The notes under the pieces are model-generated. The model had not been told where the DNA came from. It worked only from the letters and a program-made list of their open reading frames with translations, and did no database searches. Both the position numbers and the translations under genes were made by a program. Positions 47,716-56,613 of a stretch of DNA of 64,000 nt are shown here, piece after piece. Location of the stretch: the NCBI GenBank assembly GCA_965223325.1, contig CBDCWI010000002.1, forward strand, positions 1,344,001 through 1,408,000. The letters run 5' to 3'. This DNA comes from Candidatus Multivoradales bacterium. Its GTDB lineage: Bacteria; Acidobacteriota; Thermoanaerobaculia; Multivoradales; Multivoraceae. Positions within the stretch are counted from its first letter, which is position 1, and each line of letters opens with the position of its first letter.

Positions 47716-48288
47716 TCAAGAGTCCGTCTGGCGCATACGTGCGCGATGGCGCTGTTTGATCTGGCGCGCGACCTTCTCGGGCATCAGCACGAACAGACCT
47801 TTCGCCTCACCGACGATGTCTCCCTCGCGAGTTTCGAGGCGCGCATGGGTGGTCACCTTGCGACCACGGACCTCGCCGACCCACGCGTCGACCCTGAGCT
47901 GCGAGAACAAGGGCACCATGCTGCGAAAGTCATACTCGATGCGTGCCGTAAACGAGGGGTAACCCGAAAGCATCGCTGCAGCACCCAGGGCGTGATCGAC
48001 GACCGCCAAGAGAGCACCACCGTGCACGTGCCCCGGTGGACCCTGGGTCAGCGAGCCAAACCAGGCCTTGCCGACCAGATGGTCGTCCTCGAGGCGGCGG
48101 TAACTTCGAAAAGCGAGGCCGAGACGCTCCGCATCCGACGCTCCCGAGCCGGTAGAGCTCCAGGGTGTCTCGGTGACAAAAAACGCAGTGTCGCCGGGCG
48201 ACGGCCTGCTCCCGACGGTGACCCACCCCTCGTCGGGCTCGAGCCAGGCTGGGTCGAAGACGTCGCCGCTGGAGTCAGAGGAGGCCAC
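47716..48288 (-). CDS. PaaI family thioesterase
   Basis: QGPPGHVHGG..LAVVD hot-dog motif. Confidence 0.85.
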   Translation of the reverse strand: MASSDSSGDVFDPAWLEPDEGWVTVGSRPSPGDTAFFVTETPWSSTGSGASDAERLGLAFRSYRRLEDDHLVGKAWFGSLTQGPPGHVHGGALLAVVDHALGAAAMLSGYPSFTARIEYDFRSMVPLFSQLRVDAWVGEVRGRKVTTHARLETREGDIVGEAKGLFVLMPEKVARQIKQRHRARMRQTDS

Positions 48289-49042
48289 GTCGACGCATGC
48301 GACCGATCAGCTCGCCACCCAGCTTGCGATAGGCAGACGCGCCGGGAGACCAGCTCTGGTATTCGAGCACCGTGTAGCCATCGCGCGGCGCCCGCGCCAA
48401 GGCGACGTTCAGCGGGATTTCTGTATTCAATACCCGTCGACCGTAGGCTTCGCGGATCGCACCGCCAGAGATGGCGGTTTCGCCGCTGCGATGATCGACC
48501 ATCGTGAGCGCAATGCCCAGGAGATCGCCCGGACTATCGAGCGGCGCCGTCTCGAGCGCTTGAAAGAAGCGTCGGAGGGCGTCGACCGAGAGCTCATGGG
48601 CAGTGGTCGGGATCACGTACCCGTGGCACGCCTGAAGCGCCATCGACGGCAGAATGGACAAACCAGGAGGCGCATCGACCAGGATGACCTCGTAGTGCCG
48701 TCGTATCGGTGCCAAGGCGCGTTGCAGGACGCGCGTTGGGTCACGCCTTCGTGCCAGCGTTAAGTCGGCACCGGCCAGACGGATGTCACTGGGAAGAAGC
48801 CGCACGCCGTCGAGCCCGGTCTCGATCACCGAGCGCGCGACCGACGCATCGTCGAGCAGGACGCCGTGAACACTGGGGCCCTGCCAGTCATTCGGCAGTC
48901 CGAGGGAGTAGCTGGCTGAGCCCTGAGGGTCCAGATCGACAACCAGGGTGCGCAGACCAGTCTCGGCGAAAACTGCCGCGAGGTTGACGGCGGTGGTGGT
49001 CTTCCCGACCCCGCCCTTGACGTTGACGAACGAGAGAATCAT
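48275..49042 (-). CDS. Orphan ParA/Soj family ATPase
   Basis: KGGVGKTTT deviant Walker A, DLDPQG, DAPP; no parB nearby. Confidence 0.9.
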   Translation of the reverse strand: MILSFVNVKGGVGKTTTAVNLAAVFAETGLRTLVVDLDPQGSASYSLGLPNDWQGPSVHGVLLDDASVARSVIETGLDGVRLLPSDIRLAGADLTLARRRDPTRVLQRALAPIRRHYEVILVDAPPGLSILPSMALQACHGYVIPTTAHELSVDALRRFFQALETAPLDSPGDLLGIALTMVDHRSGETAISGGAIREAYGRRVLNTEIPLNVALARAPRDGYTVLEYQSWSPGASAYRKLGGELIGRMRRRGLL

Positions 49043-49085
49043 GGGGCACAAGTATACGCACCAGGCTCCCAGCCGCCACCTGAAC

Positions 49086-50372
49086 TCAGGTCATGCCAGC
49101 CAGGCGGGCCTCCAGAAACCTCCGCAGTGGGCGGTTTCCAGCCACGTCCAGTGCGCGCTGGAAGCTCGCCTTCGCCGCTTCCGTCTGGCCTGCGCGGCGG
49201 AGAACCTCGGCGCGCACGACGTGAAACGGCGGATGCACCAAAAGGGTCTCTTCACGCTCGAGGGGCCCAAGCAGCTCGAGGGCTCTCTTGAGACCGTGAA
49301 CTTCGAGAACCGCCACCAGGCGGTTGAGTTCGACCACCGGCGAAGGTGCCAGCCTCGAGAGCCGATCGTAGCAACGCAGAATCTGTTCCCAGGGGACCTC
49401 CGCGTGACTCGGCGACAGGGTATGGCAGGAGGCAATCTCGGCCTCGAGGTGGAAGCGAGTCTCCGACTGGCCGCGCGCGCTCCGCCTGAGTCGTTCGAGC
49501 CCACGGCGAGAAAGCGCGCCGTCCCAGACACTGCGATCTTGCTCCGCGAGCACCACCACAACTCCTTCGGCGTCGAGTCGCGCTGGAAGACGCGCTGCCT
49601 GAAAGAGGAACAAAGCCGCAAGAGCGTCACACGAAGGATGTTCGGTCACCGGGTGATCGGCAAGCAGTTCAGCCAGCCGCACCGCCTCGAGACAGAGCTC
49701 CGGGCGAATCAACTCCTCGTCTTCGAAGGCGGCGTAGCCACGGTTGAACATCAGGTACAAGCTGGCCTGGACGGCCGCTACTCGCTCAGCCAGTTCCTCT
49801 GGCCCGGGAAACTCAACCGGCACGTCGAGCGCCCGCAGCCTGGCGCGGGCGCGCACCAGACGTTGTGCAACGGTCGCTTCGGCGACCAGAAAACCGCGCG
49901 CGATCTCACGAGCGCTCATCCCGCCGGCGGTCGACAAGACCAACGCGACGCGCGATTCCTCGGAGAGCGCCGGATGGCAACAGGCAAAGATCAGCCGCAG
50001 TTGATCGTCCTGGATCTCGCCACGAAACCCGGCAGGCGACCGCTCGGCTCGCCCCAATCGGCGCTCGATCTCGTGCTCGACAGCAGAACGGCGTTCGTCG
50101 AAGCGCCGTTCGCGACGTAGACGATCAATCGCTCGATTGCGCGCGACGCGCGTGATCCAGGCGCGCGGGTTGTCCGGTACGCCATCCCATGGCCAGCGCT
50201 TCAAAGCCTCGACGAAGGCCTCGGAGACGACGTCTTCGGCGAGGCGCAGACCGTCGCTGCCGAGAATGCGAGCCAGGAGCGCCACCAACTCACCGGAGTG
50301 GCGACGAAAGAGGTTGTCGATCGCCAGCTCAGGGCTCTGGCCAGAACCATCGGCGGCTAGAGCGTCAGGCAC
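49086..50372 (-). CDS. ECF sigma factor with C-terminal TPR-like extension (ECF42/DUF6596-type)
   Basis: AED...EAF, W...G.P..P.AW...A.N..ID..RR, D.LRLIFACCHPAL, YLMFN.GY, QDRS.WD, SPVVELNR; start re-called at GTG 50372. Confidence 0.88.
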   Translation of the reverse strand: MPDALAADGSGQSPELAIDNLFRRHSGELVALLARILGSDGLRLAEDVVSEAFVEALKRWPWDGVPDNPRAWITRVARNRAIDRLRRERRFDERRSAVEHEIERRLGRAERSPAGFRGEIQDDQLRLIFACCHPALSEESRVALVLSTAGGMSAREIARGFLVAEATVAQRLVRARARLRALDVPVEFPGPEELAERVAAVQASLYLMFNRGYAAFEDEELIRPELCLEAVRLAELLADHPVTEHPSCDALAALFLFQAARLPARLDAEGVVVVLAEQDRSVWDGALSRRGLERLRRSARGQSETRFHLEAEIASCHTLSPSHAEVPWEQILRCYDRLSRLAPSPVVELNRLVAVLEVHGLKRALELLGPLEREETLLVHPPFHVVRAEVLRRAGQTEAAKASFQRALDVAGNRPLRRFLEARLAGMT

Positions 50373-50373
50373 G

Positions 50374-50727
50374 CTAGCCCGAAAGGACTTCGATCTGGCG
50401 GAGTTCGATGCGCCGCCCAGGCCGCAGGTGGGGGCAGCCTCTCGAAATCTCGACCGCCTCGTCGTAGGAATCGGCCTCGATGAGGAAGTAGCCGCCGATG
50501 ACCTCCTTGGACTCTGCGTATGGTCCATCGACGACAACCACCTCTCCACCCTGGAGGGAGAGAACCCGGCCACCTTCGTCGTGCAGCTTCTCTCCGCCGA
50601 TCAGCTGGCCGGCTTCACCGATGCGCCGCGACCAGGCCTGGTACTCGGCAATCACCGCCTGAATCTCAGAAGGCGACGGCTGGTTGGAGTTGGGATCTTC
50701 GTGGAGCAAGAGAATGAACTGTGGCAT
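50374..50727 (-). CDS. YciI/DGPF domain protein
   Basis: DGPYAESKEVIGGYF..., IELRQI; start ATG 50727 with GGAGG RBS; directly upstream of the ECF. Confidence 0.9.
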   Translation of the reverse strand: MPQFILLLHEDPNSNQPSPSEIQAVIAEYQAWSRRIGEAGQLIGGEKLHDEGGRVLSLQGGEVVVVDGPYAESKEVIGGYFLIEADSYDEAVEISRGCPHLRPGRRIELRQIEVLSG

Positions 50728-50803
50728 GCGGACAGACCTCCGTTTTCGTTGGGTCGACTGGTTGAGCCTTCTATGAGGCGAAGGAGCCGCCTCGTAGGTA
50801 GCT

Positions 50804-50830
50804 GACGCTCGAGACCGGGCCAACTCGACG
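50804..50830 (-). promoter_or_regulatory. Candidate ECF42-type autoregulatory promoter
   Basis: Minus strand CGTCGA-N17-CGTC upstream of yciI-ECF; resembles the ECF42 motif as I recall it (-35 TGTCGA, -10 CG(A/T)C). Confidence 0.5.
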
Positions 50831-51023
50831 CCGATCCTCCACTTCGCTACAAAAAAAGTAGCGGACCCGAGCCGACCGTGAAGTCAACCGGGCCCGCCGT
50901 GCCCAAAGGTCAGGGGCTCAACTCTCGCAGCGTCCCCGTGCCTCCGGCTGCCGGGCAGGCAAACCAGTGACGACGAGCGCCGAGCGGGTCGAGAGGAACC
51001 GATGTGGTGATCTTAGCCGCAGT

Positions 51024-52184
51024 CTACCTCCTGATTTGCCTCGCTGAGGAAATCCATTGCGAGACTTTTTGCAGATTGGGCAACGCCGCGACCCGATTCT
51101 CGCGCGCGTTGGTCTCCGAAAGCCTTGCCAGTAGGGCTTCTGCGGCCTGATCGGCAAGTTCGTCGACGGTCTGAATCCCTGAAAAATGTATCAGTTCTGC
51201 GAACTGGCCCATCACGCCCTCAACCCGCATGAGATCGGCCATGCTGGTCCAGCGACCGACGACCGTTGCATCGACGTCGGGCCGCGACAGGGACGCGGCG
51301 ATCGCAGCCCGCTGCTCTGCGTCGCGACCCCGCTCGAGCAGATCGAGGGTGGTCGAAATGCCGATTGCGCGAAGCCTTCGGCCGTAGCCTGGGCCGATAC
51401 CCTCGATCTCCTCGACCTCGTAGCCGATGCGTGCCGCCTCTTCGTTCTCGCCGAAGACCAACTCGCTGGGCCGACCACCCGCCTGCCGAATCCAGTCGGC
51501 CACCTCGTGCAAACGGATCTCCATTCGGGTGCGGTTCTCACGCTCGTTGACCTGGAGGAGCCGCGCTTCGAGGTCGTCGGGCTTCTGGCGCGCCAACTCG
51601 ACCACCGAACTGATGCCGGCGAACTCGAGGAGCTCGGCGAACTGACCACGCACTCCCTGGATTCGGCAGAGGTCGGCCATGTTGTACCAACGGCGCACGA
51701 CCTTTTCCGTCACGTCGTCGTGCTGGACCCGCGCTGCGATGCGACGGAGCTCCTCGGCCCCATCGCCGCGCGCTAGCAGGTCCGCCGTCGTCGCGATACC
51801 CAGCGCGCGCATGTCGCGACCGAAGGCTGGGCCGATGCCCTCGATCTCTTCGATCTCGTAGGAGTCTGCTGCCAGCCGTGGGTCGAGCCCGAAACGGGTA
51901 TCGACAGGGTCGGCCTGCATCGCCGCCGCCGGTACGACGGCCGGTTCAGGAGCTACCGCGGCCTCGTGACGGTCGACGTCGGCGGCCATGGCCGCACGCA
52001 CCTTGTCGCGACGACGCGCGCCGTCTCCGCCAACCTCTGCCGCCAACCGGTCGCGCTCGGCCTCCAAGGCCCTGATCCTCTCGCGTGCCCACGCACCGAG
52101 ACCGAGCCAGCCGAGAGCCGCTCCGAGAAGAGCCGCCAGCAGCAAGCAGGGCCAGAATGTCGTCAGTACCTGACTCAGCAGCAT
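51024..52184 (-). CDS. Membrane-anchored protein with two tandem DUF4332 (helix-hairpin-helix) domains
   Basis: N-terminal TM; two repeats 146 aa apart, each IEGIGP...GI.TT.DLL..G...W..MADL.R..GV..QFAEL....GI..V.ELA...W. Confidence 0.85.
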   Translation of the reverse strand: MLLSQVLTTFWPCLLLAALLGAALGWLGLGAWARERIRALEAERDRLAAEVGGDGARRRDKVRAAMAADVDRHEAAVAPEPAVVPAAAMQADPVDTRFGLDPRLAADSYEIEEIEGIGPAFGRDMRALGIATTADLLARGDGAEELRRIAARVQHDDVTEKVVRRWYNMADLCRIQGVRGQFAELLEFAGISSVVELARQKPDDLEARLLQVNERENRTRMEIRLHEVADWIRQAGGRPSELVFGENEEAARIGYEVEEIEGIGPGYGRRLRAIGISTTLDLLERGRDAEQRAAIAASLSRPDVDATVVGRWTSMADLMRVEGVMGQFAELIHFSGIQTVDELADQAAEALLARLSETNARENRVAALPNLQKVSQWISSARQIRR

Positions 52185-52197
52185 CGAACCACCCTCC

Positions 52198-52353
52198 TCA
52201 CGCGTCCAGACGCAAACGCAAGCTCTCGATCTCGTCTTCGAGACCGCGAGCCGTGGAACGAACGCTGCTTCGCCTCATCGAGGCTCCAATCCAGGCGAAC
52301 AGCAGCATGACGATCGCTGTAAGGAGGAAGAAGGTCGGAAAGAGCATGCCCAC
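52198..52353 (-). CDS. 51-aa single-pass membrane protein (ArfB-like position), absent from the ORF track
   Basis: GTG overlaps the upstream TAG; GGAGG RBS; MGMLFPTFFLLTAIVMLLFAWIGASMRRSSVRSTARGLEDEIESLRLRLDA. Confidence 0.75.
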   Translation of the reverse strand: MGMLFPTFFLLTAIVMLLFAWIGASMRRSSVRSTARGLEDEIESLRLRLDA

Positions 52354-53069
52354 TACTGAATCCCTCCGTACTGGATCTCGACCCGGCGATTGCTCTCGCG
52401 TGGCGCGTTCTCGTCTTCGGAGACCGCCAGGGACGTTTCACCGGCGCCGCGGACGGAAATCCGGTCGGCACTGACGCCGCGGACTGTGAGGTACTCGGAA
52501 ACCGCGGTCGAGCGGCGCTCTGACAAACGCTGGTTGTAGGCCGCGTTGCCCTGCGAGTCTGTGTGCCCGGTGAGGGTGAGGGTCAGGTTGGGACACTGTT
52601 CTGCGACTTCGGCGACCCGATCGAGGGCCGTGGTGGCATCAGGGCGCAGCACAGCACGATCGGAGTCGAAACGCACCTGGACGTTGGCCAGTGCCGCATC
52701 CATCGCGCTCCGGCAGTCGATCGCAACGGTTTCGGAAGCCAGGTCAGGCGAAGCAACAGCCTCCGTCGCCGGTTCTGGTGCTGGCTCGGAGACCGCTCGC
52801 ACCGTCAGCTGGTTGTCGACCCGCCGTACCCACGGGTCATCCAGAGCCGCCCGCTCGGCCGCCTCGAGCGCCGCCTCGTCGGCCACTTCGCCAGTCAGAA
52901 CGAGCTCTACGAGACCCGGATGGGAAACCTCGACTGCGCTATTGGCGATTCGATCCTGAGCTCCCGCCACCACCGACGCACGGAGCGGGTCGAGGTGACA
53001 CTGCGTACAGAAGAAGCAGATGCCCAAGAAGGCGCCAAGACCGATCAACCAGGTCAGGGCTCGACTCAT
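52353..53069 (-). CDS. Inner-membrane-anchored BON + OmpA-like peptidoglycan-binding protein (ArfA-like architecture)
   Basis: N-terminal TM; L.LTGEV...V..V.NQL.V BON; VRFD, GHTDSQG, YNQRLSERR, NRRVEI OmpA-C. Confidence 0.88.
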   Translation of the reverse strand: MSRALTWLIGLGAFLGICFFCTQCHLDPLRASVVAGAQDRIANSAVEVSHPGLVELVLTGEVADEAALEAAERAALDDPWVRRVDNQLTVRAVSEPAPEPATEAVASPDLASETVAIDCRSAMDAALANVQVRFDSDRAVLRPDATTALDRVAEVAEQCPNLTLTLTGHTDSQGNAAYNQRLSERRSTAVSEYLTVRGVSADRISVRGAGETSLAVSEDENAPRESNRRVEIQYGGIQ

Positions 53070-53535
53070 CGGAAGGATCTCCTAGAAACGTTCGGTACCC
53101 CGCCCCTCAGTCTCGGGTGCTGCGAGTCGCGGTCTCCGGCCGCCTGTTGGCAGCCTCGAAAACCCACACCCCTCCCCCGAAGCCAGGTTCATTCGAACCC
53201 GAAACCCCGACAGGACCTCGCAACGCGTCACCGCGCCACCACTGAGCTAAGGAAAGCGTGCGTTCAATATGCTTTCGCCACGGCGGGTTGTCAACCACGA
53301 GCCAGCGGCACCGAGCCACGATTACGACAACCTTGCGCCCGAGAGAACCGACCTGTCGAGAGTTATTCGAGTTTCGAACGGGTCGCTGACCCACCGGGAA
53401 ATCCTTTGATTCTTCACTTTGCACCGAACGAGCACAGCGGGCCCAGAAAGTTGCGCGAGAGCGCCAGGAAAGGGCGCCCGCACCCACCGGCGGAACACCG
53501 AAAAGCTCCCCGCTTCCGATAGCCTCGCGACCACT

Positions 53536-54720
53536 TTGCGCATCGCCTACCTCCACTACCTCTGGGGCTCGGATACTGCTCTCCTGCATGTCGAGCAACT
53601 GACGCGGGCCCTTGGTGACCTCGGGCACGAGGTCTCGGTGCACGCCCTCAACCTGGCACCGACAGAAGCCGGCGAAGGAACACCCGCCGGGCGCCGGGCG
53701 CGGTCGCTTCTGAAACGCCTCGCGCGACGCTGGCTCCACGAGCCCAAGGAACTGCTCTGGAACCTGCGCTATCTCCCCTCGGAGGTCGCTGCGCTGCGCA
53801 CGGCCGATGTCGCTCTGGTGCGAGCAGAACCCCTCGGAGCCAGCTGGATTCGAGCGGCGCGCAAGACCGGTGTTCCGGTGGTCGCCGAGGTCAACTCTCC
53901 GGTCCTCGAAACGGTCGAGTACCAACCCGAGTACACCCATCTCCCCTGGATCGCCGGCGCCCTCGAGCGCTATCGCACCAAGAACGCCAACGCCACGATC
54001 ACCGTCTCGGGACCGCTGGCGGACCATCTGGTCAAAACGACAGGGGTCTCGCCCGACCGCGTCACGGTGATCGCCAATGGCGCCGACGCCGAGCGCTTTC
54101 ACCCTGACGTCGCACCGGACAGAGAAGCCGCCGCCTTCCGCCGAACTCTCGGTTCGGGCAGCGTCGTCGGCTTCGTGGGCTCGTTTCAGTACTTCCACGG
54201 GCCTGACCTTCTCGCGGACATCCTCGGGCGCGTCCTCGAAGCCGACCAGACGACCGGCGTCATCCTGGTCGGCGATGGGCCCGGCCGGAGCGGCATCCTC
54301 GAGAAACTCGCCGTCCACCGCAACCGCGTCTTCCCGACCGGGCGCGTCGACCATGCCAGGGTGCCCGGACTGGTCGCAGCGATGGATGTCACTTTGCTTG
54401 CCGAGACCGCGTTCTACTGCTGCCCACTCAAGGTCCTCGAATGGGCGGCCGCCGGTCGTGCGGTCGTCGCACCGCGACAGGAGTCGGTTGCAGAGTTGCT
54501 CACCGACGGCGAAGCGGCCGCTCTCTTTCCCCCCGGCGACGCGGCCGCCGCCGCTCAAACGGTCGCCGCCCTGCTCACCGACCCGGAGCGCTCTTCGAAG
54601 CTCGGATGCGCCGCCGCGGCCCGCATTCGCGACGAGCTCACCTGGAGCCATACCGCCCGCAGGGTTGCGCGCGTGCTCAGAGAGGTGCGCGAGGACGCGG
54701 CCGTCGGTTCGGCAGGCTAG
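53536..54720 (+). CDS. Glycosyltransferase family 4
   Basis: ITVS..L, VIANG.D..RF, GFVGS, VGDGP, PLKVLEW.A.G; start re-called at TTG 53536 (uncertain). Confidence 0.88.
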   Translation: MRIAYLHYLWGSDTALLHVEQLTRALGDLGHEVSVHALNLAPTEAGEGTPAGRRARSLLKRLARRWLHEPKELLWNLRYLPSEVAALRTADVALVRAEPLGASWIRAARKTGVPVVAEVNSPVLETVEYQPEYTHLPWIAGALERYRTKNANATITVSGPLADHLVKTTGVSPDRVTVIANGADAERFHPDVAPDREAAAFRRTLGSGSVVGFVGSFQYFHGPDLLADILGRVLEADQTTGVILVGDGPGRSGILEKLAVHRNRVFPTGRVDHARVPGLVAAMDVTLLAETAFYCCPLKVLEWAAAGRAVVAPRQESVAELLTDGEAAALFPPGDAAAAAQTVAALLTDPERSSKLGCAAAARIRDELTWSHTARRVARVLREVREDAAVGSAG

Positions 54721-55490
54721 TCCCCCGGGGCGTCGCCAGGGTCGGAGTCGTCTTCATCGGGCCAGTGCACCCTGAAGCGTCGCCCACCTACGACCAGGTG
54801 CTCGAGATCCTCGTCCATTCCGCGAAGCAGGTCGAAACGCACCATGTCGGCCAGCATCACTTCGCCATGCCTGGAAGACTGAGCGAACAGGCGCTCGTAC
54901 TGATCGAAGCGCAGCGTCTCGAGGTCGAGCGAATCTCGTTCGCTGTTGTCGAGCACCACCGACAGGCTGCCCTCCTCGTCCAACTGATGACTCCGGCCGG
55001 TCAACGGCGTGATCAGACAATCCAGGTAGCTCTTGTCGTACCACTCGTCACTGACCCGGTACTCGAAGAACCACAGTCCGAGTTCAGGCTCCCACCCCAT
55101 GTTCTCGAGAAAGAAGCGCTGGAGACGTTCAGCCACCGGTCGCCCCTGCCACCACCACTTGCGCTCGAGGTCGACGTGAATCGGCTCGTAGCGAAACTCG
55201 GCCAACGCCTCGTCGAGAGGCACACCACGCGCTAGGGCACGCGCAATCGGTACCGGTGAGTAGGTGCCTCTAGCGAGACCAGGCAGGCGCGCGACCAGGT
55301 CCTCTAGAACTGCGCCAACGGCTGGGTCCGCCAGAACCGAGTCGGCGGTTGCGGGGTCGCCCAGGAGGACCTCCCACTGGGAGTCGATGAGCGGATTCTG
55401 GAAATGCTTGCCGTACTTGAAGAACAGGTAGCAGCTCTCGACCGCGAGCAGCCGGGCCGCTATTCGAACGGGATGTTCGGATGCGACCAA
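54717..55490 (-). CDS. Hypothetical protein, possibly DUF1285-like C-terminal region
   Basis: Coding-like composition fills the gap downstream of the ADH; W.W.G.P.. and ..TP..., L...LDN...L.L motifs; start uncertain. Confidence 0.6.
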   Translation of the reverse strand: MVASEHPVRIAARLLAVESCYLFFKYGKHFQNPLIDSQWEVLLGDPATADSVLADPAVGAVLEDLVARLPGLARGTYSPVPIARALARGVPLDEALAEFRYEPIHVDLERKWWWQGRPVAERLQRFFLENMGWEPELGLWFFEYRVSDEWYDKSYLDCLITPLTGRSHQLDEEGSLSVVLDNSERDSLDLETLRFDQYERLFAQSSRHGEVMLADMVRFDLLRGMDEDLEHLVVGGRRFRVHWPDEDDSDPGDAPGD

Positions 55491-55524
55491 GCAGGTTCTT
55501 CGTGTCCGGCGCGCAGACCGCGAG

Positions 55525-56613
55525 TCAGGAATCGAAGACGATGACCTGACGCGCGACCTCACCGGTCTTGAGCGCATCGAGAGCATCGTTTATGCCCGCC
55601 AGTGGAATCTCATCCGAGATCAGCGCATCGAGTTCCAGGCGGCCATTCAGGTAGAGCTCAACGTAGCGTGGCATATCGAGACGGAACTGGTTCGAACCCA
55701 TCAACGAACCCTGGATCTTCTTCTCCTGGAGGAACTCAGGCCCGTGCAGCTCGATGTTCGTTCCGACCGGAATCATGCCGATCACGGTCGCGGTACCACC
55801 GGGGCGCAACATCTTGAAGGACTGCTCGGTGGTGACCTTGAGCCCAATGGCCTCGAAGGAGTAGTGCACCCCGCCCGAGGTCAACTCGCGCACCGCACCC
55901 ACGACGTCGTCGGTTTCGCCGGCGTTGACCGTGTGGCTCGCTCCGAACTTCTTCGCCAGCTCGAGCTTCGAGCCCAGACGATCGACCGCAATCACCCGGC
56001 CGGCGCCTGCCAGCGCGGCGCCGTTGATGCAGCTCAAACCAACGCCGCCGCACCCGATGACCGCAACGTCGGTGCCCGGCTCGACCGCTGCCGTACGGAA
56101 GACCGCACCTAGACCGGTGGTCACGGCACAGCCAATGACAGCGGCGCGGTTCATGGGCATGTCCTTGCGGATTTTCACGATCGCGTGTTCGTGGACCAGC
56201 ATCTGTTCCGCAAACGAAGACAGGTGTAGAAACTGGTGCATGCCGACTCCCTGCCGGGTCATGCGCGGCTCGGCGTCGTGTGGACGGTCGGTGGCCGAGC
56301 CGCCGCAGCGACTCAGGTGCCCACCGAGACAGTGCTCACAGGATCCACAGAAGACCGACAGGCAGGTAATGACGTGATCACCCGGTTCGACATAGCTGAC
56401 GTCGCTTCCAACCTGCTCGACGACCCCGCACGACTCGTGGCCGAGCACGGTAGGCAACGGCACCGGATAGGAGCCTTCGACGAAGTGCAGGTCGCTGTGG
56501 CAAACCCCCGCCACCGCGGTGCGAATCAGAACCTCGCGAGGGCCCGGCTTGTCGATCTGGATGTCTTCGATCTCGAGTGGTTTGCCCACCTCACACAGAA
56601 CAGCGGCCTTCAT
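55525..56613 (-). CDS. Zn-dependent alcohol dehydrogenase (class III-like MDR)
   Basis: GVCHSD, GHE, CGSCEHC...C structural Zn, GCAVTTG, GCGGVG. Confidence 0.93.
   Translation of the reverse strand: MKAAVLCEVGKPLEIEDIQIDKPGPREVLIRTAVAGVCHSDLHFVEGSYPVPLPTVLGHESCGVVEQVGSDVSYVEPGDHVITCLSVFCGSCEHCLGGHLSRCGGSATDRPHDAEPRMTRQGVGMHQFLHLSSFAEQMLVHEHAIVKIRKDMPMNRAAVIGCAVTTGLGAVFRTAAVEPGTDVAVIGCGGVGLSCINGAALAGAGRVIAVDRLGSKLELAKKFGASHTVNAGETDDVVGAVRELTSGGVHYSFEAIGLKVTTEQSFKMLRPGGTATVIGMIPVGTNIELHGPEFLQEKKIQGSLMGSNQFRLDMPRYVELYLNGRLELDALISDEIPLAGINDALDALKTGEVARQVIVFDS

Follow-up and report, generated by a model that had tools for sequence, protein, structure and literature searches.

The DNA analysed is a window of 64,000 nucleotides from a Candidatus Multivoradales bacterium of the Acidobacteriota (contig CBDCWI010000002.1, positions 1,344,001 to 1,408,000), and the subject is a group of three genes on its minus strand, here called genes 1, 2 and 3 in the direction of reading (Table 1). 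Gene 1 encodes a protein with a BON domain and a C-terminal OmpA domain (OmpA-C), gene 2 a protein of 51 amino acids and gene 3 a protein that ends in two DUF4332 domains. The genes are co-directional, with a 1-nt overlap between genes 1 and 2 and a 13-nt gap between genes 2 and 3, and a Shine-Dalgarno-like site (AGGAG or GGAGG) is found 8-9 nt ahead of each start. Each protein has one strongly hydrophobic 19-mer, at residues 4-22 for genes 1 and 2 and at residues 13-31 for gene 3. A preliminary description, made from the sequence alone, had pointed to three linked genes with one N-terminal transmembrane (TM) helix each, and the open reading frames (ORFs) and the hydropathy bear this out. The overlap of the GTG of the 51 amino acid ORF with the upstream TAG, reported there as well, is present in the DNA, which reads ...cagTAGTGggc... 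with one shared base.

Table 1. Features of the locus, with positions counted from the first nucleotide of the window
Feature	Position	Strand	Basis
Gene 1, ArfA-like TM + BON + OmpA-C protein, 238 aa	52353..53069	-	ORF, Pfam, PDB relative
TM or signal-anchor helix, gene 1 residues 4-22	53004..53060	-	Follows 'MSR'; Cys at periplasmic end; hydropathy
BON domain, gene 1 residues 45-91	52797..52937	-	Pfam PF04972
OmpA-C peptidoglycan-binding domain (predicted), gene 1 residues 133-228, GHTD...LSERR	52386..52673	-	Pfam PF00691
Gene 2, 51-aa orphan ORF; single TM, Arg-rich, short amphipathic tail	52198..52353	-	ORF
Gene 3, bitopic protein, TM + long helix + linker + 2 DUF4332 domains, 386 aa	51024..52184	-	ORF, Pfam PF14229, AlphaFold2 (AF2)
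TM helix, gene 3 residues 13-31, Cys13 in outer half	52092..52148	-	Hydropathy, N-terminal profile, family alignment
Cytoplasmic helical stalk (predicted), gene 3 residues 32-76, continuous with TM helix	51957..52091	-	AF2
DUF4332 domain 1, gene 3 residues ~105-240	51465..51872	-	Pfam, AF2 helices 102-236, alignment
DUF4332 domain 2, gene 3 residues 255-386	51027..51422	-	Pfam best stretch 261-383, AF2
Promoter-like site TTGACA-17-CATATT, 5' of gene 1	53266..53294	-	Consensus scan, pattern match only

In the gene 1 protein the OmpA domain is matched by Pfam with an E-value of 4.1e-21 and the BON domain with an E-value of 2.3e-5 and 25.0 bits, slightly below the gathering cut-off of 27 bits; the precomputed protein-database annotation of the same protein has both. 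The motifs GHTD and LSERR are present, and the BON plus OmpA-C composition first read from the sequence is confirmed by Pfam. The hydrophobic 19-mer has a Kyte-Doolittle score of 1.98, and the protein contains no second such window. The best relative in PDB is Rv0899/ArfA (2l26_A; phmmer E-value 3.9e-17, query residues 20-232), matched in a single stretch that spans both BON and OmpA-C; PomB, MotS and MotY are also among the PDB matches. Gene 1 is ArfA-like in both architecture and sequence.

The gene 3 protein matches PF14229 (DUF4332) in two stretches with an E-value of 1.2e-55 and 187.3 bits, against a cut-off of 23.2. Each stretch opens with an EGIGP hairpin (EGIGPAFG and EGIGPGYG), and the two repeats with GIGP hairpins of the preliminary description are thereby recovered. 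Other Pfam families matching the protein are HHH_5 and Cdd1, and the linker together with the first domain matches the NCBIfam L21-extension model NF008916 (E-value 1.4e-7). The hydrophobic segment is followed by WARERIRALEAERDR. The closest relatives among proteins (P0002, P0003 and P0005) have 41-48% identity, and the closest in the genome scan described below, in the Acidobacteriota metagenome-assembled genome (MAG) L001, has 49%. The protein search with gene 3 delimits a subfamily, here called TM-type, in which the N-terminal TM segment is kept across members (consensus MGYLIxQIxLCLLxA..G.IIGWLL); after it come a segment that resembles a coiled coil and varies greatly in length, and then between one and three DUF4332 domains. 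The N-terminal profile of this subfamily matches gene 3 with an E-value of 4.6e-8. Protein lengths range from 201 to 1022 amino acids, with a highly variable stalk; two proteins from Campylobacterales MAGs (L003:3213-6281, 1022 aa, and L004:4170-5963, 597 aa) contain repeats of a coiled-coil unit and as many as three DUF4332 domains, and their upstream partners carry two OmpA-C domains. Most TM-type proteins also have a Cys-rich basic motif right after the TM segment, on the predicted cytoplasmic side (..CCKKR, CRCKR, GGCRKK; for example in L005, L007, L008 and L021); gene 3 of the window is without it and has WARERIR in this place.

The conserved unit at this locus is the pair of genes 1 and 3, not the trio. 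One genome per species (GTDB set) was scanned with the TM-type subfamily alignment as query, and the best 80 of 450 confirmed loci were examined with simple ORF calls made for this analysis. A TM-type DUF4332 protein is encoded at 34 of the 80 loci, two of which (L014 and L022) are cut by a contig end, leaving 32 assessable loci. At all 32 a co-directional TM+BON gene lies directly upstream, and at 30 of them it includes OmpA-C. In most loci the two genes lie -4 to +4 nt apart, which suggests translational coupling. An OmpA-C gene of any kind was found within the flanks of about 5 kb at only one of the 46 loci with other types of DUF4332 gene, and there it encodes a porin-like protein 376 nt downstream. 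The pair is found in MAGs of Pseudomonadota, Campylobacterota and Acidobacteriota, labelled Gammaproteobacteria, Thiotrichales, Chromatiales, Pseudomonadales, Woeseiaceae, Campylobacterales and Acidobacteriota. The adjacency is kept while the surrounding genes differ between lineages (tpiA-secG-nuoA-E; YbjQ, M48 and small proteins; LemA and cytochrome c), and the pair is therefore regarded as the unit that is conserved. The survey of DUF4332 next to OmpA that had been proposed beforehand thus gave a strict pairing of an OmpA/BON gene with a DUF4332 gene. The pair is also present on a contig labelled uncultured Mycobacterium sp. (L035), with gene order and N-termini nearly identical to those of the Gammaproteobacteria MAGs L023 and L024; the label seems to result from a binning error, and this locus is not taken as evidence for the pair in mycobacteria.

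A homologue search with gene 1 returned generic OmpA-C proteins. The family of upstream partners can be recognised by MKK or MSR, a hydrophobic stretch ending in ..YFC, a BON domain, sometimes extra BON-like modules, and OmpA-C. Pfam finds BON in 29 of the 29 partner proteins scanned and OmpA in 27. Two residues of the OmpA-C domain, D171 and R186, are nearly invariant across the family; in other OmpA-C structures the Asp and the Arg have a role in peptidoglycan binding. A Cys at the periplasmic end of the TM helix (column C21) is nearly invariant as well. Two partners, in MAGs of Gammaproteobacteria/Pseudomonadota (L028:4617-4964, 116 aa, and L068:4612-4995, 128 aa), consist of TM+BON only, and no room is left for OmpA-C before the DUF4332 gene.

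Gene 2 fills the 168-nt spacer that separates genes 1 and 3 in the window. Its hydrophobic segment is followed by GASMRRSSVRSTAR, and its predicted orientation is N-out/C-in, as for gene 3. The ORF looks coding, since it has its own GGAGG 9 nt ahead of the start and a GC content by codon position (0.48 at the second and 0.73 at the third position) like that of its neighbours. No family match was found in Pfam or NCBIfam, no candidate homologue in a word-indexed protein search and no match at E <= 0.001 with phmmer against 1.84 billion representatives; the protein itself is absent from both protein collections searched. ESM Atlas gave just unnamed clusters of 56-64 amino acids at 0.90-0.91, which are leads only. 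The region 50800-53450 has no Rfam match at E <= 1, and the repeat check found no second copy of the spacer inside the window. A small ORF between the genes of the pair is found in none of the 32 relatives, including L001, where the two genes abut, and the small TM ORFs that flank the pair in relatives amount to three unrelated chance ORFs. An origin of gene 2 by duplication of the 5' end of gene 3 was rejected: the DNA alignment has no convincing similarity, and the match of gene 2 to the profile of 55 family N-termini, which is in register (14-44 to 14-44), has an E-value of 1.4 and rank 4 among 690 ORFs of the window, so that duplication is unsupported. Gene 2 is probably a lineage-specific small membrane protein outside the conserved core.

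The charges flanking the TM segments predict the orientation of the DUF4332 proteins. In 32 of 33 family members the 3-7 residues before the TM segment include neither Lys nor Arg; the 12 residues after it contain 1-4, and the C-terminal flank is the more positive one in 33 of 33. An n-region like that of a signal peptide is thus missing, and by the positive-inside rule both the stalk and the DUF4332 domains are predicted to be cytoplasmic in all 33 members. Fusions of DUF4332 to the cytoplasmic ribosomal proteins S2 and L20 and to PAS domains agree with this placement. The gene 1 protein is predicted to face the periplasm from the look of its signal-anchor and mainly from its domains, BON and OmpA-C being extracytoplasmic domain types. 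The opposite topologies that had been proposed for the two proteins therefore hold on flanking charges for the DUF4332 family, and for gene 1 mainly through the known location of its domain types.

The two TM segments also have cysteines in corresponding places. Of 31 pairs, 28 have a Cys in both proteins where the TM helix nears its periplasmic end, two have it in neither (L001, Acidobacteriota, and L049, Woeseiaceae) and one, L026, has it in the partner but not in the DUF4332 protein. This co-occurrence (Fisher p = 0.006, uncorrected for phylogeny) is compatible with helices that touch or with a disulfide and is taken as a lead only. The length of the partner is correlated with that of the DUF4332 protein (Spearman rho 0.69, n = 27, uncorrected for phylogeny). 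A complex prediction with gene 1 residues 1-100 (29 rows) and gene 3 residues 1-80 (18 rows) gave two scores of 0.02 each, the mark being 0.32; it was run without controls and counts neither way.

The AF2 model of gene 3, made from an alignment of 55 rows, has a mean predicted local distance difference test score (pLDDT) of 88.8 and consists of a single helix (residues 2-76), a disordered linker rich in Ala and Pro (79-93) and two compact domains of eight helices each. Foldseek with the whole model gave weak, globally misfitting matches only, and a single domain was therefore modelled. Domain 2 alone is again predicted as eight helices (pLDDT 97.3, predicted template-modelling score 0.89), and its local matches, all with E-values of at least 0.04, are helix-hairpin-helix (HhH) domains: the N-terminal (HhH)2 domain of RadA (root-mean-square deviation, rmsd, 1.3 A over 66 columns), the thumb of Pol iota (2.2 A over 61 columns), the acidic repeats AR1/AR2 of NusA (3.1-4.2 A over about 69 columns, 24-26% identity) and the HhH domains of Pol theta, Hel308 and Hjm. 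In the models DUF4332 is an HhH-type fold without a close solved relative. The local superposition on (HhH)2 modules such as those of RadA/Rad51, NusA AR1/AR2, the Pol iota thumb and domain 5 of Hel308/Pol theta takes in about half of a DUF4332 domain, but the whole fold of eight helices and about 130 residues has no solved counterpart in the PDB library searched. Basic residues that adjoin both hairpins (GIGP and G[VI]xG) are conserved, with Lys or Arg after hairpin 1 and a nearly invariant R66 in the alignment. Binding of DNA or RNA is possible, with no strong indication of it.

DUF4332 is a large family of bacteria and archaea. Outside the TM-type subfamily its members are stand-alone proteins, with a net charge of the domain from -6 to +14, or are fused to ribosomal proteins S2 (PF00318) or L20 (PF00453), to PAS or to membrane domains (PF01794, PF03729, PF13886); in many of the proteins P0039-P0103 the domain is a C-terminal extension of S2 or L20. 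The automatic name given by JGI to many relatives is 'flap endonuclease-1-like 5' DNA nuclease'. Stand-alone DUF4332 genes of 135 amino acids have a HerA_C gene (PF05872, E-value 1.7e-234) within the 5-kb flank at 22 of the 46 non-TM loci, mostly in Alphaproteobacteria (L037, L041, L043, L046, L052, L053, L063, L074 and L079 are among them), and in the maps read this gene lies upstream on the opposite strand. This arrangement could point to a DNA-related role or simply be an inherited gene order.

Starting from the observed domains, adjacency and charge-based topology, we infer that the two proteins form a tether across the membrane which is fixed to peptidoglycan and serves a nucleic-acid or nucleoprotein ligand, a reading in which our confidence is slightly better than even. 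The gene 1 protein would be held in the inner membrane by its N-terminal signal-anchor, with the BON domain, a putative lipid binder that may be in touch with a membrane, and OmpA-C in the periplasm, and the grip of OmpA-C on peptidoglycan would immobilise the protein on the wall. The gene 3 protein would be inserted the opposite way with its N-tail of 3-12 residues outside, and its helical or coiled-coil stalk, of lineage-specific length, would project into the cytoplasm and carry one to three DUF4332 domains at its end. The TM helices of the two proteins, one in each, may physically pair in the membrane, possibly with a disulfide linking the cysteines close to their periplasmic ends. Together the proteins would form a cytoplasmic docking site, fixed to the wall, that keeps at the envelope a ligand that could be nucleoid DNA, RNA or the ribosome, or a protein such as RNA polymerase. 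The 51 amino acid ORF would be a lineage-specific addition.

Several points weigh against the tether. The contact between the two proteins and the binding of a ligand by DUF4332 both rest on inference. The TM+BON partners without OmpA-C in L028 and L068 indicate that wall anchoring is not obligatory. The charge count over 12 residues is ambiguous for the anchor of the partner, with the N-terminal flank more positive in only 8 of 29, because the N-tail has just 3-5 residues (MKK, MSR). The pattern of cysteines has one exception and draws on related sequences, and the Cys of the gene 1 family could serve another role. The DUF4332 domains of the TM-type proteins are acidic in 8 of the 8 examined (net charge -3 to -9, isoelectric point about 5.2), whereas typical non-specific DNA binders are not acidic in this way. 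Foldseek against PDB gave no match at E <= 0.001 with the model of the whole protein or of domain 2, and the PDB sequence search with gene 3 gave none at E <= 1. The neighbours of the pair in relatives are housekeeping genes (tpiA, secG, nuoA-E, SoxYZ, LemA, M48) that give no functional hint.

Among the ligands, a protein, or the ribosome or RNA, would be in line with the acidic domains. DUF4332 would then be a protein- or ribosome/RNA-binding module like NusA AR1/AR2, and the pair would recruit RNA polymerase, the ribosome or another factor with no DNA contact, which is a possible reading, if a doubtful one. It is consistent with the NusA matches, the many fusions to S2 and L20, the match to the L21-extension model and the fusions of other DUF4332 domains to membrane domains, but the structural matches are statistically weak, and no conserved third gene is found in the neighbourhoods of the relatives; the cytoplasmic partner is hypothetical. 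Rather unlikely is a complex that links peptidoglycan with DNA, be it chromosomal or incoming, by way of non-specific contacts of the HhH motifs, in nucleoid anchoring or DNA handling. The acidity of the domains speaks against it, every Foldseek E-value lies above 0.04, the protein-binding acidic repeats of NusA match equally well and the frequent S2/L20 fusions point equally to RNA or the ribosome. On its side are the conserved basic residues beside the two hairpins, the local fold matches to the DNA-binding N-terminal domain of RadA, the thumb of Pol iota and Pol theta/Hel308, and the JGI label, an automatic name only. The gene for a HerA-like ATPase of the DNA-translocase type within 5 kb of stand-alone DUF4332 genes would also fit, but comes mostly from Alphaproteobacteria that are related to one another, where the gene order may simply have been inherited. 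DNA would likewise be the ligand if the DUF4332 domains were periplasmic and bound incoming DNA beside the wall-bound OmpA protein, in the manner of ComEA, a membrane-anchored HhH receptor for DNA. This is scarcely probable at all, given the lack of Lys and Arg before the TM segment and their presence after it, the cytoplasmic contexts of other DUF4332 domains and the absence of competence genes nearby, both in the window and among the neighbours in relatives.

It is improbable that the two genes are mere neighbours, encoding an ordinary periplasmic protein of the OmpA family and a membrane protein unrelated to it, which share one operon without forming a complex. Proteins with OmpA-C are abundant and diverse, and the interaction of the pair is putative, both of which would suit such a view. 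Against it stand the adjacency at 32 of 32 loci in three phyla with near-zero spacing and changing flanks, the co-occurrence of the cysteines and the correlation of the lengths; the partner moreover belongs to a distinct TM+BON subfamily and is not any OmpA protein.

A true orthologue of arfABC, the ompATb operon of M. tuberculosis, would act in ammonia release and acid adaptation, and this we hold to be very improbable. According to PMC6151718, Rv0899 is composed of a membrane anchor, a BON domain and an OmpA-like domain, and according to PMC12183614 the ompATb locus is a co-directional cluster with further membrane proteins downstream, the operon has the role just named and what rv0900 and rv0901 do is still elusive. 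Gene 1 has the same three-part build as ArfA (anchor, BON, OmpA-C), and both loci are co-directional with membrane proteins downstream. The layout of a TM-BON-OmpA protein, a small TM protein and a further TM protein matches too, and Rv0899 is the best solved relative of gene 1 over both domains. The resemblance to arfABC stated in the preliminary description stands in this respect, for gene 1. It is weakened for the layout of three genes, since the middle gene is unique to the window, being an orphan without detectable homologue that is missing from all 32 relatives, and the arfABC-like layout may be coincidental. The two loci differ further in that gene 3 has two DUF4332 domains, no source being found that links ArfC to DUF4332, and in that the hosts of the pair are Gram-negative lineages. 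No ammonia or acid link was found at the pair loci, with no nitrogen- or acid-related genes nearby in the window or among the recurrent neighbours in relatives.

The tether reading can be compared with systems of similar build. ZipA of E. coli has a very short periplasmic N-tail, one TM segment, a charged juxtamembrane segment and a long linker, and its C-terminal globular domain holds a cytoplasmic partner at the membrane. As modelled, gene 3 would share this N-out/C-in anatomy, and its long helix, disordered linker and compact domains, together with the variable length of the stalk in the family, are tether-like. It differs from ZipA in having no sequence relation to it, in its globular domain, which is of HhH type and not the FtsZ-binding fold of ZipA, and in its obligate wall-binding neighbour. 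FimV/HubP (with LysM) and MapZ bind the wall through a periplasmic or extracellular domain and so hold in position a cytoplasmic recruiting domain on the other side of a single TM helix. The logic of a wall-anchored landmark would by analogy be similar, but these are single polypeptides with other domains, whereas the pair is made up of two oppositely oriented proteins with BON+OmpA-C as wall binder. An inner-membrane-anchored protein whose C-terminal OmpA-C reaches the wall, as in gene 1, is also found in MotB/PomB, TolR-Pal and ExbD-type systems. These have no BON, and the partner of gene 1 is instead a single-pass HhH protein; a multi-TM partner of MotA, TolQ or ExbB type was found neither among the neighbours in the window nor among the recurrent neighbours in relatives.

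A narrower form of the tether reading is a widespread pair of an ArfA-like peptidoglycan and lipid binder and a ZipA-like stalk protein, joined through their TM helices and perhaps by a disulfide, in which the cytoplasmic DUF4332 domains fix the nucleoid (or ribosomes or RNA) to the wall. We regard this form as plainly unlikely; if true, it would give a first function for DUF4332 and hint at the purpose of the unexplained partners of mycobacterial ArfA. In a full-text literature search DUF4332 was met only in a figure legend, COG3743 only in passing and PF14229 nowhere, and no description of an OmpA/BON and DUF4332 pair was found; the parts belong to known families, and the pair itself looks undescribed. 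The strict pairing offers a first testable functional context, a wall-fixed cytoplasmic docking site, for one branch of DUF4332. If the cargo were DNA or ribosomes, Gram-negative cells would have a new way of coupling envelope position to cytoplasmic organisation. ArfA-like proteins would be recast as outer halves of transmembrane pairs, which would bear on the unexplained rv0900 and rv0901.

The genes around the group in the window are of other kinds. Directly downstream, at 49086-50823 on the minus strand, a YCII-domain gene (PF03795) overlaps a gene for a sigma factor of extracytoplasmic function (ECF) type with Sigma70_r2/r4 and DUF6596 plus a tetratricopeptide-repeat-like tail (PF20239). 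A neighbouring YCII gene is a typical companion of ECF sigma factors that have a C-terminal extension, and these genes are not beside the pair in relatives. Three genes 3' of the DUF4332 gene, at 48275-49051 (minus strand), lies an orphan ParA/MinD-like P-loop ATPase (AAA_31 with E-value 2.6e-38, CbiA, ParA); it is tempting for a positioning role but is not conserved beside the pair in relatives. On the other side, an ORF of 289 amino acids at 54717-55586 (minus strand), with no match in Pfam or NCBIfam, is found between a GT4 glycosyltransferase (53419-54720, plus strand) and a zinc-type alcohol dehydrogenase-like ORF. A terminator scan gave no convincing candidate between genes 1-3 or 3' of gene 3. 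The promoter-like site 5' of gene 1 is the only one found in the consensus scan, compared with 0.3 expected from shuffled sequence.

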